A DNA stretch of 64,000 nt from Dehalococcoidia bacterium (GTDB lineage: Bacteria; Chloroflexota; Dehalococcoidia; Dehalococcoidales; UBA3254). The stretch lies in assembly GCA_025361145.1 (NCBI GenBank), contig JANYAV010000015.1, positions 38,699 through 102,698 of the forward strand, read 5' to 3'. The position numbers were made by a program, and so were the translations under genes. Numbering within the stretch: position 1 is the stretch's first letter; each line of letters starts with the position of its first letter. The notes under the pieces are model-generated. The model was not told the DNA's origin. It did not search any database and worked only from the letters and a program-made list of their open reading frames with translations. Below are positions 30,875 to 59,136 of this stretch, in pieces.

Positions 30875-30903
30875 AAAAAGGCCGGCTATGTACAGCCGGC
30901 CTT
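30875..30903 (-). terminator. Intrinsic terminator after the zinc-ribbon gene
   Basis: On the minus strand: AAGGCCGGCTgtacatAGCCGGCCTTttt. Confidence 0.7.
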
Positions 30904-30925: not shown

Positions 30926-31222
30926 CTATTTACGCTTGTCGAAGCAGTCCCTGCAATAGACGGGTTTATCACCGCGTGGTTGGAAAGGAACTTCAGTGTC
31001 TTTGCCGCATTGAGCGCAGACTGCTGCGAACATCTGGCGGGGACCTCGGCTCATACCACCGCCGCCACCAGTGCCCTCCGATCTGCGGGTTTGTCGGCAG
31101 GCCTGGCAGCGCTTAGGTTCATTAGTGTAACCTCTCGTTGCAAAAAATTCCTGCTCTTCAACAGTGAAGGCGAAAGATTTGCCGCAGTCAGAACATACCA
31201 ATGTTTTTTCCTCGAGTGCCAT
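30926..31222 (-). CDS. CxxC...CxxC double zinc-ribbon protein (paralog 1)
   Basis: LVCSDCGKSFAFTVEEQEFF...CQAC...CAQCGKDTEVPFQPRGDKPVYCRDC. Paralog of 57171..57464. Confidence 0.8.
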   Translation of the reverse strand: MALEEKTLVCSDCGKSFAFTVEEQEFFATRGYTNEPKRCQACRQTRRSEGTGGGGGMSRGPRQMFAAVCAQCGKDTEVPFQPRGDKPVYCRDCFDKRK

Positions 31223-31223
31223 T

Positions 31224-31268
31224 TGGATGACCTCCTAAAACTTTTTCGGGTTCACGGCGGGTCATCCA
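31224..31268 (-). promoter_or_regulatory. SD-sequestering hairpin in the 5' leader of zinc-ribbon paralog 1
   Basis: mRNA: TGGATGACC-27 nt-GGTCATCCAaATG. The 3' arm starts inside aGGAGGT. Confidence 0.5.
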
Positions 31269-31331
31269 TTGCTCGGAGGATTTATGATATCAAACCAAGT
31301 AGGGACAACCTGACCAGAAACCTCTGGCTAC

Positions 31332-31360
31332 ATACTAAAACAACAAAAATAATTTTGCAA
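31332..31360 (-). promoter_or_regulatory. Candidate sigma70-type promoter TTGCAA-17-TAGTAT
   Basis: Read on the minus strand; about 100 nt upstream of the zinc-ribbon ATG. Confidence 0.45.
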
Positions 31361-54533: not shown

Positions 54534-56834
54534 CTAGGCTTGATGAGGGCCGCGGCCGAGGAGTTCTTCCAGGATGATGACCGCGGCTTTTTTGTCCAGG
54601 GGCTCGTTATTATTTCCGCACTTGGGGGACTGGATGCAGCTGGGACAGCCCTCCTGGCAAGGGCATTCGAGGATAGAATGGTAGGTAGCTTCCCACAGGT
54701 CTTTGATCAATTCATAGCCTTTTTCGGCAATGCCGATACCACCCGGGTGGGCATCATAAATAAAGATCTGACCCTTAGCTGTGTCGACATGGAAGGGAGT
54801 AGAAACGCCGCCGATATCATTGCGGTCACACAGGGCGAATAGCGGCAAAATGCCGATAGCGGCATGCTCGACAGCATGAATCCCTCCGAAAAAGTCCGCA
54901 CCGGCTTCGGCGATGCGGGTGATCGCGGTGGCGGGCAGATCAAACCAGAGCGAGATGGTGTTGAATACCTGGGGAGGCAGGTCGAGAGGCTCCTCCCCCA
55001 ATATCTCTTCCGTTAATTGGGCCTTGCGGCGGTAGCCGATCACGCTGTTATTGACCTCAACCTCTCCCAGACAGACGGTGGCGGGTCCGCTTTTCTGCCG
55101 CTGCTGTTCTTTGATGATCTTGAGGTCGGAAAGCTCGGTGACCCGGGTGTAGTAATTAACCTCAGCCGGTTCGACATAAGCGGTGCGGCCCGCGATATCC
55201 AGTTTAGTGACCAGATAAGTGTCGCCCTGATGCAGGAAAATGGCGCCGGTGTGCACCATGAAAAAGGCCTGAGAGGATTCGATGGTCTCCAGCGGCTGAT
55301 CGGTGGAAGTATCGATAATACTATAGTTCTGGCCGGAAGTAGAGCGGATATTGATGGCCTGGGCCGGGTAGGCAATACCAGATGGAATATACCACAAGCT
55401 GCCGCGCTGTTTGAGCTGGTTTTGCTGTGTCATTGCCTGGATCTCAGGGAGCATAGATGTGCCAAAATAGACAGTGTCCCTCTCGCTGAGGGGTTTTTCC
55501 CAGGAGGCACAGGCCAGGTGCGCCTGCAAGATATAATGGTTCGCGGGATTAATCAGGGCATTTTCAAAATTCCTGGCAAAGAAATTCTCGGGGTGGCGCA
55601 TGAAATACTGGTCCAGTGGATTATCAGTGCCGATCAGGAAGCTGATGGCTTTTTGATTGCTGCGACCGCTGCGGCCAGCCTGCTGCCAGGTGCTGGAGAC
55701 GCTGCCGGGATAGCCGGTCAAAACAGTGGCTTCAAGGTCGCCGATATCTATGCCCACTTCCAGGGCGTTAGTGGCCACCACGCCAATCAATTTGCCGGTG
55801 AAAAGCTCTTTTTCGATCTTGCGGCGATCCTGTGCTAGATAGCCTGCGCGGTATGGCCGGATCTTGTTGGCCAGGAGGTGGTCGATCTTCGCCAATCTCT
55901 GACGGGAATAGTTATAAATAAGCTCGGTGAGACGGCGAGTGCGGGCGAAAGTAAGAGTGCGGATTTCCTTTTCCACAAGTTCGGTAAATATGAAGGTGGC
56001 CTCGCCATTGGCCGAACGGCGGCTCTCTTTCTTATCATCGACCAGGGGCGGGTTCCAGAAAACGAAGTCTTTGCCGCCGTGCGGGGAGCCGTCATTAGAA
56101 ACCACGGTGAAGGGCAGACCGGTTAGCTTTTCGGCATGTTCGCCTGGGTTGGCAATCGTGGCGGAACAGCAAATAAACTGAGGCCTCGTGCCGTAAATCT
56201 CGCATAAGCGGCGCAGCCGGCGCAGGACGAGGGCCACGTGCGAACCGAAAACACCGCGGTACATATGGGCTTCATCGACTATTACGTATCTGAGCCGTCT
56301 CAGGAGGCGTGCCCAGGACTGGTGGTTGGGCAGGATTCCGAGGTGCAGCATGTCTGGATTGGTGATCAGAATCCGGGCGTTCTTTTTGATATCGAAGCGT
56401 TCATTCTGGGGCGTATCCCCGTCGAAGGTGGCGCATTCATCGCTTTCCAAAATGTCCGGGCAAAACTGCTCACGCATTCTGAGCAGCTGGTCCTGGGCCA
56501 AAGCTTTAGTGGGGAACAAATACAGGGCGCGGCTGCTTTTTTCAGTCAGCAGGGCTTCCAGGACCGGAATGTTATAACACAGGCTTTTACCACTGGCGGA
56601 GGAGGTGGCCACCATGACGTTACCACCGTTGCGGGCGGCGTTGACGGCGGTGGCTTGATGCCCATAGAGCGGCCAGAGCGCGTTGTCATCCAGACACTGC
56701 TGCAACTTCCTGGCCAGAGGACGCTCCAGCTCGCCGAAATCAGCGGAGCGGGGCGGGATGTGTTCGATATGGGCGATCTGGTCGCTATATTCGGGCTGGG
56801 CGGTGAGATGGTGCAGAAAGCCTGCAGTATCCAA
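54534..56834 (-). CDS. DEAD/DEAH-box helicase with C-terminal DUF1998 zinc module (YprA/MrfA-like)
   Basis: Walker A TSSASGKS, DEAH in VIVDEAHMYRG, C-terminal CPCQEGCPSCIQSPKCGNNN. Confidence 0.9.
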   Translation of the reverse strand: MDTAGFLHHLTAQPEYSDQIAHIEHIPPRSADFGELERPLARKLQQCLDDNALWPLYGHQATAVNAARNGGNVMVATSSASGKSLCYNIPVLEALLTEKSSRALYLFPTKALAQDQLLRMREQFCPDILESDECATFDGDTPQNERFDIKKNARILITNPDMLHLGILPNHQSWARLLRRLRYVIVDEAHMYRGVFGSHVALVLRRLRRLCEIYGTRPQFICCSATIANPGEHAEKLTGLPFTVVSNDGSPHGGKDFVFWNPPLVDDKKESRRSANGEATFIFTELVEKEIRTLTFARTRRLTELIYNYSRQRLAKIDHLLANKIRPYRAGYLAQDRRKIEKELFTGKLIGVVATNALEVGIDIGDLEATVLTGYPGSVSSTWQQAGRSGRSNQKAISFLIGTDNPLDQYFMRHPENFFARNFENALINPANHYILQAHLACASWEKPLSERDTVYFGTSMLPEIQAMTQQNQLKQRGSLWYIPSGIAYPAQAINIRSTSGQNYSIIDTSTDQPLETIESSQAFFMVHTGAIFLHQGDTYLVTKLDIAGRTAYVEPAEVNYYTRVTELSDLKIIKEQQRQKSGPATVCLGEVEVNNSVIGYRRKAQLTEEILGEEPLDLPPQVFNTISLWFDLPATAITRIAEAGADFFGGIHAVEHAAIGILPLFALCDRNDIGGVSTPFHVDTAKGQIFIYDAHPGGIGIAEKGYELIKDLWEATYHSILECPCQEGCPSCIQSPKCGNNNEPLDKKAAVIILEELLGRGPHQA

Positions 56835-56846
56835 GCCTTGCCTCCC

Positions 56847-57137
56847 TCAGACCGCCAGTATCTCGATTTCGTAGTTCATGAACTCAAAGTCGCCCTGGCT
56901 TTTGACGACCATGTCGACCGCTTTGGATAAGTCCTCGTTGGTGAAGCGCTGATCGTTGCTGACAAAACAAATTCCTATAGTGGCTAGCTGCCACAAATCA
57001 TTATCTTCAACTTCAGCGACTGAGACATTGAATTTGTTTTTCAAACGCGCAGTGACGGATTTAACCACCTGTCTTTTGCCTTTAAGAGAGAGGTTATCCG
57101 GCAGCCCCAGTTTGATTTTACAGATGCCGACATTCAC
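56847..57137 (-). CDS. DUF503 (YlxP-like) protein
   Basis: NVGICKIKLGLPDNLSLKGKRQVVKSV. GTG start. Confidence 0.85.
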   Translation of the reverse strand: MNVGICKIKLGLPDNLSLKGKRQVVKSVTARLKNKFNVSVAEVEDNDLWQLATIGICFVSNDQRFTNEDLSKAVDMVVKSQGDFEFMNYEIEILAV

Positions 57138-57170
57138 CCTTTAATTATAGCTGAAGGGCTTTTAGAATGT

Positions 57171-57464
57171 CTAAACGGGTTTTTTCTGTTTGGTGTAACA
57201 CTCGCGGCAGAAGACCGGGCGGCCTTCGGTGGGTTCGAAGGGGACCTGGGTTTCTGCGCCGCAATCGGCACAGGTTACTGTGTGCATCTCGCGTGGACGG
57301 CTGGCATCGGTTTTCCGACTATGGCGGTGGGTTACCCGGCATTGGGGGCAGCGGCTGGGATCATTTTGCAAACCATGAGTTGAATAGAATTCCTGTTCCC
57401 CAGCGGTAAACAAGAAATCTTGTCCGCAATCACGACAGCGAAGGGTTTTCTCTTCAAACACCAT
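57171..57464 (-). CDS. CxxC...CxxC double zinc-ribbon protein (paralog 2)
   Basis: LRCRDCGQDFLFTAGEQEFY...CPQC...CADCGAETQVPFEPTEGRPVFCREC. Confidence 0.8.
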   Translation of the reverse strand: MVFEEKTLRCRDCGQDFLFTAGEQEFYSTHGLQNDPSRCPQCRVTHRHSRKTDASRPREMHTVTCADCGAETQVPFEPTEGRPVFCRECYTKQKKPV

Positions 57465-57466
57465 CA

Positions 57467-57513
57467 GACTGCACCTCCTTGTCTATACTGTGTCCCTTGA
57501 TTCCGGTGCAGTC
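57467..57513 (-). promoter_or_regulatory. SD-sequestering hairpin in the 5' leader of zinc-ribbon paralog 2
   Basis: mRNA: GACTGCACC-29 nt-GGTGCAGTCtgATG. The 3' arm starts inside aaGGAGGTG. Confidence 0.5.
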
Positions 57514-57592
57514 CGAGTTCCTTAAACCCCTGGTTAGATCAGGTAGAGGATGGAAACCCTGGGCCCAAGCATATATACGGCTGACCAGGATG

Positions 57593-57630
57593 ATTGACAC
57601 TTAGCTATATATTATACACCTTGTGTCAAT
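57593..57630 (-). promoter_or_regulatory. 8-bp inverted repeat ATTGACAC/GTGTCAAT bracketing a TATAAT box
   Basis: Minus strand: ATTGACACaaggtgTATAATatatagctaaGTGTCAAT. Confidence 0.4.
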
Positions 57631-57690
57631 AGAGATATACGCATAGGTGCATACATTGCGGTGAATACCTGGGAAGGCTAGTTAGAGCTT

Positions 57691-59136
57691 TTAGACACGA
57701 GTTTTGGTCATTTTCAGACAGAGGATCTGACGGGTAGAGGGAGTGACCTTGACCCGTTCATCGACGCGGTAACCGGCGATCCAGACGATCTGCTGGGAGG
57801 TGTAAAAGATGGGGACATCGGGCCGCCACAATTTAGGGATGCGGGCATCCAGCATGAAAAGGGCCACTTTCTTTTCCTGATCCATACCCAAAGGTTGAAA
57901 GCGGTCTCCCCTTTTTAAAGGTCTTATGCTGATGCTTTTGCCAACCTTCTGCCAGTCCAGATAGGCAGTGAAGGCATCCAGGTTTTCTGAGGTATTGCCG
58001 ACTTCAGTCAGCGGTTTGACTCTGGCTTCAATCCGCCAGCCGGGTAAATCAGTTTCACCCGGGATTACCAGCTCGCATTCTCCTTGCAATGCGGGGAAGG
58101 GAGACAGCTTCTCAGCCTGGGGCCCCAGCAAAAAGCGGTCGTATTCAATACAAAAAACCAGGCCTTCCGGGAGGTCGATGCTGCGGCCGGCCGGTTTAGT
58201 CAGGCCCTTGAGGACCTCCTCGATATGGCGGGTTTCGATGTCTTTCAAGGTTCCCAGCAGATTTTCAAACGCCTTGCGCAGCAGCTGGCGCTTTAAGGCT
58301 GGCGCCAGGGACAGAAAAGATTTCTTCTCAAAAATAAAAGTGCCTTTTTGTAGATGCACGACGCGCTTCCAGGCTTTTTTGGTCTCGGATTCCAGAAAAG
58401 CCAGATCGTCAGTCGCGATCCGGGAAATGCGGGCAAGTGAGTCTATAATGCCGTTATTATAATCTTTCAAGAGCGGCAGCAATTCATGACGTACCCGGTT
58501 GCGTAGAAAATCAATGGACTGGTTGCTGGAATCTGTTCTGGGCGATAACCTGTGCAGCTTGCAGTATGAGACGGTTTCCGCACGCTCCACTTCCAGCAGC
58601 GGGTGGACAACGGTTAATTTTTGATCTGCGAAGCTCAGGGTTTGAATTGGCTGGAGCCCGCGCAAGCCCCGCGTCCCGGAGCCCCGGATGATATGCAGCA
58701 AGATGGTTTCCGCCTGGTCGTTGAGAGTGTGGCCGGTGGCGACGCACTCCGCCCCGATTGAGTTGGCTGTTTCAGCCAGAAAGGTGTATCTGACCTCACG
58801 CGCAGCTTCTTCCAGGGAAAGGCGGTGGACTTTTTGATAGGCCTTGACTTCTCTTTTTTCGATGGTGGCGGGGATTCCCAGTTTTTGAGCCAGCTTAGCC
58901 ACGTATTCAGCGTCTTGTCTCGCTTCCGCGCCGCGCAGGGCATGGTTTAGATGGGCGATATGCAGTTCGATCTGAAGCTCTTTTTGTAGCTTGAAGAAAA
59001 TATGCAGAAGACAGACAGAATCAGGCCCACCTGAAACGGCCAGCAGGACTTTTTGGCCCTGTTTAATCAAACCGCCTCTCTGGATATTCTTGAGCACGCG
59101 CTGCTCAAGAGGGATACTCTGCTTTCTGCTTGCCAT
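57691..59136 (-). CDS. tilS: tRNA(Ile)-lysidine synthase
   Basis: PP-loop LLAVSGGPDSVCLL. Confidence 0.92.
   Translation of the reverse strand: MASRKQSIPLEQRVLKNIQRGGLIKQGQKVLLAVSGGPDSVCLLHIFFKLQKELQIELHIAHLNHALRGAEARQDAEYVAKLAQKLGIPATIEKREVKAYQKVHRLSLEEAAREVRYTFLAETANSIGAECVATGHTLNDQAETILLHIIRGSGTRGLRGLQPIQTLSFADQKLTVVHPLLEVERAETVSYCKLHRLSPRTDSSNQSIDFLRNRVRHELLPLLKDYNNGIIDSLARISRIATDDLAFLESETKKAWKRVVHLQKGTFIFEKKSFLSLAPALKRQLLRKAFENLLGTLKDIETRHIEEVLKGLTKPAGRSIDLPEGLVFCIEYDRFLLGPQAEKLSPFPALQGECELVIPGETDLPGWRIEARVKPLTEVGNTSENLDAFTAYLDWQKVGKSISIRPLKRGDRFQPLGMDQEKKVALFMLDARIPKLWRPDVPIFYTSQQIVWIAGYRVDERVKVTPSTRQILCLKMTKTRV

Follow-up and report, generated by a model that had tools for sequence, protein, structure and literature searches.

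A conserved leader with two mutually exclusive predicted folds at the ribosome-binding sites of paralogous zf_Tbcl zinc-finger genes in Chloroflexota

Several kinds of leader RNA adjust the access of ribosomes to a start site by changing their fold. In ribosomal-protein leaders, the binding of a protein shifts the conformation of the RNA. RNA thermometers of the ROSE type are recognized by an anti-Shine-Dalgarno (anti-SD) motif with a bulged G, and those of the FourU type by four U's opposite AGGA. The hok mRNA of plasmid R1 is a type I toxin mRNA with metastable hairpins that sequester the SD sequence. Concerning Chloroflexota, we know of almost no characterised RNA regulation. Metastable SD-sequestering hairpins are also described in the type I toxin mRNA aapA3 of Helicobacter pylori (PMC6733600). 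The cspA mRNA of Escherichia coli, according to the account of Giuliodori et al. (2010) given in PMC6386945, adopts two temperature-dependent conformations which differ in the accessibility of the ribosome-binding site (RBS). In the leader of the maturation gene of the levivirus MS2, the RBS is closed by an upstream complement, with a metastable hairpin that retards the closure (PMC4615214).

The DNA analyzed here, called the window, is a single stretch of 64 kb that carries two paralogous genes for small zinc-finger proteins:

57171..57464, minus strand: gene of paralog 2 (P2), encoding a 97-aa protein with zf_Tbcl and zf_Tbcl_2 domains and the CxxC-x17-CxxC pattern (ORF list, Pfam, TIGR04272)
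30926..31222, minus strand: gene of paralog 1 (P1), encoding a 98-aa zf_Tbcl plus zf_Tbcl_2 protein

The two proteins are 46% identical, and both are members of the family: with PF13451 and PF23477 (gathering cut-offs 24 and 27 bits) the scores were 71.8 and 71.9 bits for P2 (E-values of 4.5e-20 and 3.4e-20) and 65.1 and 72.9 bits for P1, while the NCBIfam model of the CxxC-x17-CxxC pattern, TIGR04272, gave 72.3 and 73 bits for the two paralogs versus a cut-off of 36. The products are basic, with an Arg/Gly-rich linker between the two zinc-binding modules. Two homolog searches returned 768 and 3265 zf_Tbcl matches, and the closest relatives of the zinc-finger genes were those of Dehalococcoidales. 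A profile search of the PDB with the zinc-finger protein returned only generic C2H2 and LIM zinc fingers, with no RNA-binding precedent, and a Foldseek search with the AF2 model (pLDDT 85.6, pTM 0.44) was uninformative, its best match having E = 0.097 and offering no RNA-binding precedent either. We know of no function beyond zinc binding for the zf_Tbcl / CxxC-x17-CxxC proteins. Zinc binding itself has been shown in archaeal relatives (PMC12704099). In the literature searched, no paper was found to mention PF13451, zf-trcl or PF23477, and the papers that name CxxC-x17-CxxC do not describe the regulation of the family.

Immediately upstream of each gene, the end of the RBS faces a complementary segment of the same mRNA:

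57467..57475, minus strand: RBS arm (3' arm) of P2, GGUGCAGUC, comprising the spacer and the two final G's of the SD (sequence, fold)
57474..57478, minus strand: SD core GGAGG of P2, of which only 57474-57475 lie in the helix
57505..57516, minus strand: anti-RBS arm (5' arm) of P2, UCGGACUGCACC, the predicted partner of the RBS arm (closed) or of an upstream element (open)
31224..31232, minus strand: RBS arm of P1, GGUCAUCCA (sequence, fold)
31260..31268, minus strand: anti-RBS arm of P1, UGGAUGACC (sequence, fold, alignment)

The P2 mRNA reads ...cuCGGACUGCACCggaaucaagggacacaguauagacaaGGAGGUGCAGUCUGAUG, and the 3' end of its leader, written as mRNA, is ...CUCGGACUGCACCggaaucaagggacacaguauagacaaGGAGGUGCAGUCUGAUG. 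An exact complementarity of 9 nt upstream of P2 had been claimed in the initial annotation, and both the sequence and the fold bear it out: GACUGCACC (57505-57513) is the perfect complement of GGUGCAGUC (57467-57475), and a loop of 29 nt separates them. In the minimum free energy fold, the helix was lengthened to 12 bp (UCGGACUGCACC/GGUGCAGUCUGA) and included the A of the AUG (57464). The predicted stability of this hairpin was -20.9 kcal/mol (z = -2.75), and no dinucleotide shuffle out of 200 was as stable. In P1, UGGAUGACC and GGUCAUCCA form a 9-bp helix around a 27-nt loop, also with -20.9 kcal/mol (z = -3.14; 0/200 shuffles). The same annotation was right in that P1 has the same architecture (a 9-bp stem, with a loop of 27 versus 29 nt) built from unrelated arm sequences, and in that P1 and P2 differ at six of the nine positions of the arms, with compensation at all six. 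A scan of the window for perfect stems covering the RBS, run on 67 crudely called genes and with P1 masked by an overlapping spurious ORF, gave for the other genes a longest stem usually of 4-5 bp and never of more than 8 bp, the perfect 9-bp stem of P2 and the stem of P1 being the two longest in the window.

The description of the hairpin as SD-sequestering stood only in part. The helix does cover the end of the SD, but of GGAGG the stem takes in no more than the two final G's. It lies mainly on the spacer and the start codon, not on the SD core and, accordingly, the pairing of the GGAGG core of P2 was not above that of shuffled controls. As the mean unpaired probability of the core was uninformative, tests based on the stem and on swapping of arms were used in its place. 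So, it can be said that the helix occludes the SD less than it does the spacer and the start codon, the latter being covered in many orthologs, and that a helix in this position is predicted to necessarily impede the binding of the 30S subunit.

Concerning the selection acting on the closed helix, 184 related loci were gathered, which for the comparison of leaders amounted to about 45 independent ones. The leaders of the Chloroflexota and Dormibacterota homologs form classes with class-specific arm sequences, and about 28 independent orthologous leaders keep the closed helix with wobble or compensated changes. In class A, the P2 type, the arms GACUGCA(C/U)C / GGUGCAGU(C) occur in every close ortholog; the variants are U-G wobbles and, in the locus L089, a compensated change from G-C to A-U, and 90.7% of the inner helix is paired. 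In class B, the P1 type (16 independent leaders, with the arms aligned by MAFFT without structural input), 95.5% of the cells are paired, the nine core pairs show no mismatch, and each substitution is either a wobble or compensated. When the partner was slid out of register, pairing in class B dropped to 48% or less. Double-sided changes were found at three pairs of class B, a number matched by only 3 of 500 shuffles, and unguided RNAalifold of the full class B leaders found the closed helix. Read on the sense strand, the wobbles are G-U pairs, whereas the antisense strand would have C-A mismatches at these places, so the structure is that of the mRNA itself.

Aligning classes A, B and C together with MAFFT placed the arms out of register and, since arms of different classes could not be registered in this manner, upstream regions were grafted between classes. 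Native stems had a mean length of 8.9 bp in class A and 11.1 bp in class B, versus about 6 bp in the grafts, and in 24 of 28 leaders no graft reached the native length. The closed helix is under selection as a structure of the sense-strand RNA, as had been proposed from the compensated arms of the two paralogs; the wobble and compensated changes in about 28 leaders, the 3/500 shuffles and the swap test agree on this point. The covariation expected among orthologous leaders was found to a lesser extent: class B contains compensated pairs, but the arms are almost invariant within a class and nearly all of the compensation is between deep paralog classes.

The helix is not kept everywhere. In eight diverged orthologs with 51-57% identity, in which the synteny with DUF503 and a helicase is maintained, the homology of the leader is recognisable, the inner helix is weakened, and the predicted RBS pairing is not above that of shuffles. 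Two leaders (L082 and L003) carry uncompensated mismatches in the helix; in one locus (L084) the promoter adjoins the RBS directly, with no leader; and in another (L001) the loop is interrupted by a terminator-like hairpin. In Dormibacterota (class D), the swap test gave marginal support to a local hairpin. In Bacillota homologs no stem was present, the complementarity being at chance level (3-5 bp). A contiguous local hairpin considered in Ktedonobacteria (class C) was discarded, as it failed the swap test and the consensus there was a different, long-range helix at the RBS. Orthologs without a complementary arm, which had been named beforehand as evidence against a selected structure, were thus encountered in part, with diverged orthologs weakening or losing the helix and close ones keeping it. 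The weakened or lost helix of the diverged orthologs means that the gate is not universal, even within Dehalococcoidia.

Farther upstream, each leader is preceded by a promoter-like block:

57611..57629, minus strand: promoter-like block of P2, TTGACA-N7-TATAAT, with the -10 at 57611-57616; position conserved in five orthologs
31332..31360, minus strand: promoter-like block of P1, TTGCAA-17-TAGTAT, scoring 8/12; position conserved in orthologs

Such boxes are common to the orthologs at 100-150 nt upstream of the start codon, reading TTGACA-N7/8-TATAAT in the P2 subgroup, TTGACT-17/18-TATAGT in distant class A, TTGCAA-17-TAnnAT in the P1 subgroup, and a TATAAT-like -10 in other class B leaders. 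The boxes of P1 and P2 are below the threshold of the promoter scan, and the transcription starts are for this reason only inferred; judged from the sequence, that of P2 would be at about 57600-57606 and that of P1 at about 31322-31326. Counted from such putative starts, each paralog would have a leader of some 110-140 nt. Three other explanations of this region were tried and rejected. A 48-codon upstream ORF beginning with GTG (57454-57600) has no SD and is reduced to 13 codons in L161. An intrinsic terminator or attenuator does not suit a loop of 27-30 nt with no U-run after the stem, and the terminator scan found none at either leader. A DNA palindrome or operator does not suit the G-U wobbles of the sense strand and the 27-30-nt spacing, which point to RNA.

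In every leader, a conserved competitor element that imperfectly copies the RBS arm of that leader is located directly downstream of the promoter-like boxes. The elements of the two paralogs, and the loop motifs complementary to parts of them, are the following:

57578..57600, minus strand: 5'-proximal competitor element of P2, GUGUCaaucauCCUGGUCAGCCG, a block conserved in the window leader (W_P2) and in L161, L162, L166 and L168
57490..57496, minus strand: loop motif of P2, GGGACAC, complementary to the upstream GUGUC and conserved in five P2-type orthologs
31303..31322, minus strand: 5'-proximal competitor element of P1, GGUUUCuggucaGGUUGUCC, conserved at this position in class B
31272..31299, minus strand: P0 hairpin of P1, CUUGG...CCGAG, located after the competitor element and before the anti-RBS arm
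31248..31253, minus strand: loop motif of P1, GAACCC, complementary to the upstream GGUUUC

The competitor of P2 contains GGU-CAG(Y)C, which repeats the RBS arm GGUGCAGUC imperfectly, and its consensus in the subgroup is GUGUC-N6-CCUGGUCAG(U/C)CG, the region between competitor and arm being variable in sequence and in length. RNAduplex selected the competitor as the best partner of the 5' arm in 5/5 P2-type leaders. Unguided RNAalifold of the full P2-subgroup leaders returned a consensus in which the upstream element takes up the 5' arm together with the first half of the loop, i.e. an open fold of 10 + 6 bp in which CUGGUCAGUC pairs with GACUG(C)ACCGG and GUGUCU with GGGACAC. In P1, GGUUGUCC of the competitor is complementary to GGAUGACC of the 5' arm over 8 bp, including two G-U. 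All 16 class B leaders have GGUUU..AGGUURUYA at the position of the competitor, and the class B copy AGGUUAUCA resembles AGGUCAUCCA. The unguided consensus of the full P1-subgroup leaders paired GGUUACCGAU with AUUGG(A)UGACC, stacked on a small hairpin, and also GGUUUC with GAACC.

When the leaders were truncated before the RBS arm, the pairing of the copy with the 5' arm was the sole consensus helix of class B (n = 16), and distant class A gave CCUUG...GUGU.GUUUCY paired with GGAGAC.(G/A)CAU...CAAGG, which again engages the arm and the loop motif. Consensus folding thus recovered the open fold in four subgroups of different sequence, and classes C and D have competing complementary segments around the RBS too. 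In a structure-blind alignment of class B, the 7-bp core of the open fold had 109 of 112 cells paired, with 16 wobble-compatible variants, and slid registers gave 35-45%. The conservation of the class-specific loop motifs (GGGACAC, CAAGG, GAACC/UAACC) is explained by their pairing in this fold. Other tests were less clear. Native open pairings had -19 to -21 kcal/mol versus -14 to -18 in grafts, a moderate separation that was unconvincing for the distant class A group; comparison of the duplexes of arm and upstream region with those of shuffled arms was individually weak (RNAduplex, p = 0.03-0.7); and no double compensatory change was found within a class in the open helix, the shuffle control not being significant. 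The competitor element exists, is conserved and is complementary, in register, to the 5' arm, and a bistable gate as such is well supported.

From these data, the structured leader probably gates the access of ribosomes to the zinc-finger protein in Chloroflexota. Concerning when and how fast the folds would form, what they would do to translation and what would trigger a change in the cell, we infer a gate that closes by itself, open at first and closed later, as in the maturation-gene leader of MS2; we assign to this reading a probability of roughly 45%. The leader of each paralog would consist of three mutually complementary segments, namely an imperfect copy of the RBS arm near the 5' end (segment 1), the anti-RBS arm with the first half of the 'loop' (segment 2), and the RBS arm proper, which runs from the end of the SD through the spacer to the start codon (segment 3). 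Segment 2 could hold one partner at a time. Its pairing with segment 1 would leave the RBS free (open state), and its pairing with segment 3, in the perfect 9-12-bp hairpin, would block the binding of 30S (closed state). The open fold would form first because segments 1 and 2 are transcribed first, and segment 3 would then displace the copy because the RBS arm matches perfectly while the copy pairs with a bulge and wobble pairs. If transcription started downstream of segment 1, the open fold could not form. Translation would be confined to an interval after the synthesis of the mRNA, and that interval could be tuned, via the balance of the folds or the rate of refolding, by temperature, helicases, chaperones, 5' processing and possibly the encoded protein. 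A broader form of this proposal, in which the gate would operate lineage-wide in Chloroflexota and the mRNA would be translatable only while the 5'-proximal RBS decoy holds the anti-RBS arm, longer in the cold or whenever refolding is slowed, is possible but doubtful.

The energy models give to this proposal the following basis. With the RBS forced open, the competitor fold was the best state in 9/9 leaders, at +3 to +12 kcal/mol above the closed state. For 22 of 27 leaders, the models gave the 5' arm of the nascent RNA a probability of 0.7-0.9 of being paired upstream, versus 0.1-0.5 with shuffled upstream sequences. At the equilibrium of the full leader (n = 27), 16 leaders were closed, 7 open and 4 intermediate, a bimodal distribution across orthologs. 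In the window, P1 was closed and P2 near balance at 37 °C, with P(closed) from 0.48 to 0.82 according to the ends assumed for the transcript, to which such thermodynamic predictions are sensitive. The idea of an ON/OFF switch, contained in the initial annotation, is therefore sustained in so far as the leaders conserve, upstream, a copy of the RBS arm as a rival for pairing with the 5' arm, while the effect on translation is a matter of model prediction.

Two further readings accept the competing folds and place the control elsewhere. An equilibrium thermosensor similar to that of cspA would make the protein in the cold, the imperfect open fold winning at low temperature and the short perfect hairpin at high temperature. 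Every switch predicted by the models had this sense: at 20 °C and lower, W_P2 was open with a probability of 0.75, and at 37 °C it was closed with a probability of 0.82, the midpoint being near 30 °C; L172 and L166, which likewise closed on warming, had midpoints at about 43 and 68 °C. Some family members, moreover, adjoin genes for S21 (4 loci), an RRM protein or Csp (2 loci), genes that are cold-induced in other bacteria. Yet 6 of 9 leaders were modelled as closed at every temperature, the energy gap between the RBS-open and closed states mostly narrowed with heating, which is the opposite trend to that of a cold-open switch, Rfam gave no cspA match, and the gene context is anecdotal, being dominated by DUF503 with an MrfA-like helicase (30-32 loci) or by DHO dehydrogenase; all this makes the thermosensor unlikely. 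Improbable as well is that the switch is moved by a protein, perhaps autogenously, with the encoded zinc-finger protein or another RNA-binding protein or helicase binding one of the modelled conformations. A short motif present twice per leader (RBS arm and copy) would suit a protein with two sites, and so would the two zinc-binding modules and the Arg/Gly-rich linker of the product; the neighbours include S21, the RRM protein, helicases and a 23S rRNA gene, and genes of the P2 type apparently share a transcript with DUF503 and a DEAH helicase. On the other hand, the sequence and fold searches returned a generic zinc-finger resemblance and no evidence of RNA binding, the conservation of the loop and arm motifs is already explained by RNA-RNA pairing, and motifs wholly different between paralogs of one genome would demand a recognition specific to each paralog.

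The remaining readings fit the data worse. A conventional thermometer, with a hairpin that melts on heating and frees the RBS, was one of the forms of switch suggested for this leader, and it is consistent with the inclusion of part of the SD and the spacer in the helix and with the lower cost of opening the RBS at higher temperature in most leaders. But the helix is perfect, rich in G+C, 9-12 bp long and of -20.9 kcal/mol, with none of the mismatches typical of thermometers; where it forms, the models kept it closed with P of at least 0.8, mostly at least 0.95, up to 75 °C; Rfam gave no ROSE or FourU match; the downstream gene is neither a heat-shock nor a virulence gene; and the conserved upstream competitor would be left without explanation. 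So, a thermometer that opens by melting is very unlikely. The ligand-responsive leader suggested with it fares no better. The layout of sequestor and anti-sequestor in three segments is typical both of small-molecule riboswitches and of leaders opened by an sRNA, as that of rpoS, but Rfam had no match even at E <= 10, a conserved multi-helix aptamer is missing, and the unpaired sequences, loops included, are not conserved between classes. As to an sRNA, no additional copy of either arm stands out in the window, where the 9-mer of the P2 arm has 10 matches versus 9.3 expected. We regard both variants as highly improbable. The least probable reading is a static structure, acting as a stabiliser of the mRNA or as a constitutive damper of translation, with an incidental upstream complementarity. 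It would agree with the closed equilibrium predicted for most leaders and with evidence for the open fold that, within a class, consists of conservation and wobble changes only; but a 5'-proximal element complementary to the arm and the loop motif is present in four subgroups of unrelated sequence, the conservation of the loop motif would otherwise have no reason, and the predicted equilibria are bimodal across orthologs. It seems reasonable, thus, to retain the self-closing gate as the preferred reading.

Concerning the novelty of the leader, Rfam 15 gave no match across the 64-kb window, none to the leaders of 20 related loci, and none on 57440-57700 at E <= 10, in agreement with the earlier statement that no cis-regulator is described for this protein family. 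A covariance model of class B, run on both strands of 607,851 nt, matched only leaders of class B zf_Tbcl genes, the P1 leader of the window with 74.5 bits. An extra match of this model, in L114, was a decayed duplicate of the leader, followed only by a 23-codon ORF. The leader family, its arrangement on two paralogs and its lineage are absent from Rfam and from the literature searched; the class of mechanism is already known. The conservation of so elaborate a gate on both paralogs suggests that the dosage or the timing of the product is tightly controlled. Mutants of the leader should deregulate expression and would provide an experimental handle on the zf_Tbcl proteins. The two paralogs of one genome, with the same architecture and different sequences, are a natural experiment on how such a switch can be constructed, and the family, lacking in Rfam, would join the few cellular mRNAs that are controlled by rival folds and have no dedicated aptamer. 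If the broader, lineage-wide form of the self-closing gate is true, the leader would be a new kind of timer responsive to cold or stress, and zf_Tbcl a candidate factor of stress or of RNA metabolism.

Compared with the known systems, the leaders share with the ROSE and FourU thermometers a hairpin of the 5'-UTR that includes SD nucleotides. They differ in that the anti-RBS arms GACUGCACC and UGGAUGACC lack the signature motifs, and in that the helix is perfect, very stable, located on the spacer and start codon, closed by a loop of 27-30 nt and accompanied by a conserved competitor. As in the expression platforms of riboswitches, a middle segment would choose between an upstream partner and the RBS; unlike in riboswitches, there is no conserved ligand-binding aptamer and no Rfam match, and the sequences differ completely between paralog classes. 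The likeness to cspA consists in a long 5' UTR with two alternative conformations, one of which sequesters the SD and the AUG, while the downstream gene is zf_Tbcl and not a cold-shock-domain gene, no match to cspA was obtained in Rfam, and a dependence on temperature is not consistently predicted. With the type I toxin mRNAs, the leaders have in common that successive, mutually exclusive folds would set the access to the RBS and that the order of transcription would matter. In those mRNAs, however, the transient folds block early translation and activation needs processing, whereas here the first fold would be permissive and the product is not known as toxic.

The comparison with the maturation-gene leader of MS2 is the one that corresponds to the preferred reading. 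There, the RNA is a phage genome, with no homology of sequence or structure to the present leader, and the kinetic control has been shown experimentally, while here it is proposed. In both cases, an upstream complement closes the RBS at equilibrium, as predicted here in 16 of 27 leaders, and the pairings are mutually exclusive with no ligand involved; here, according to the models, an early competitor would likewise hold the complement and allow a brief loading of ribosomes. The geometry is inverted: in MS2, the closing helix is long-range and the opening one local, whereas in the zf_Tbcl leaders the closing helix is local, with a loop of 27-30 nt, and the opening one long-range.

The gene of the second zf_Tbcl zinc-finger paralog (P2) belongs to a cluster that is also found at the related loci L161-L171 from other genomes and at 20 further loci:

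window 54534-57464, minus strand: P2-type cluster

The order is conserved and runs from tilS, across a gap of 250-400 nt, to zf_Tbcl, then DUF503 and then a MrfA-like DEAH helicase, the latter being of the TIGR03817 type with an MZB domain. In 32 sources DUF503 adjoins the P2-type gene, and in 30 the helicase is found beside it; this arrangement suggests a functional tie to nucleic-acid metabolism.

Concerning other members of the zf_Tbcl family, RNA- or ribosome-related neighbours were seen at L179, L183, L184 and L092, at L180-L182, at L088 and L097, and at L029:1-494. The gene of ribosomal protein S21 lies directly 3′ of some members, others have as neighbours either an RNA-binding RRM protein together with helicase fragments or a CspA-like gene, and a further one is found about 200 nt beyond the 3′ end of a 23S rRNA gene. 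These neighbours, in cases too few to count as evidence, hint at a ribosome- or RNA-related role of the family.

Three further sites were noted around P2 and the first paralog (P1):

window 57594-57630, minus strand: inverted repeat TTGACAC-N22-GTGTCAA, spanning the -10 box in the promoter-like block of P2
window 57144-57173, minus strand: promoter-like site TAGACA-18-TATAAT, 11/12 matches
window 30878-30903: G+C-rich hairpin of 10-11 bp, just 3′ of the P1 stop codon

The downstream half of the inverted repeat is the GUGUC of the P2 competitor element (the 5′-proximal imperfect copy of the RBS arm), and its symmetry is weaker in the orthologs; the repeat could also be an operator. The promoter-like site covers the last P2 codons and the gap before DUF503, so that DUF503 and the helicase may also be transcribed independently. 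The hairpin is followed by a U-run on the minus strand, which is consistent with a monocistronic P1. On the plus strand, the scan gave a weaker terminator-like site as well.

In the whole window, 9-mers like GGTCATCCA (at most one mismatch) number 24 versus 12.6 expected, a count attained in 0 of 100 shuffles; the excess may reflect coding or codon bias.

Three loci in other genomes deviate from the common arrangement:

L084:1426-1509: leaderless ortholog, a natural variant
L001:1426-1509: ortholog leader whose 5′ arm is truncated and whose loop holds an inserted terminator-like hairpin
L114:1066-1181: second, decayed copy of a class B (P1-type) leader, 46 bits, E = 1e-6

In L084 the conserved promoter, TTGACT-17-TATAGT, is joined almost directly to the RBS, and thus this ortholog lacks both the anti-RBS arm and the competitor element. 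The hairpin that interrupts the L001 loop is strong (CCCAGAAAAAUCGAAGAUUUUUCUGGG), and this ortholog may be under a different mode of control. The second L114 leader is located 3′ of the zf_Tbcl gene, with nothing but an ORF of 23 codons after it, and is probably what remains of a paralog that has been lost.
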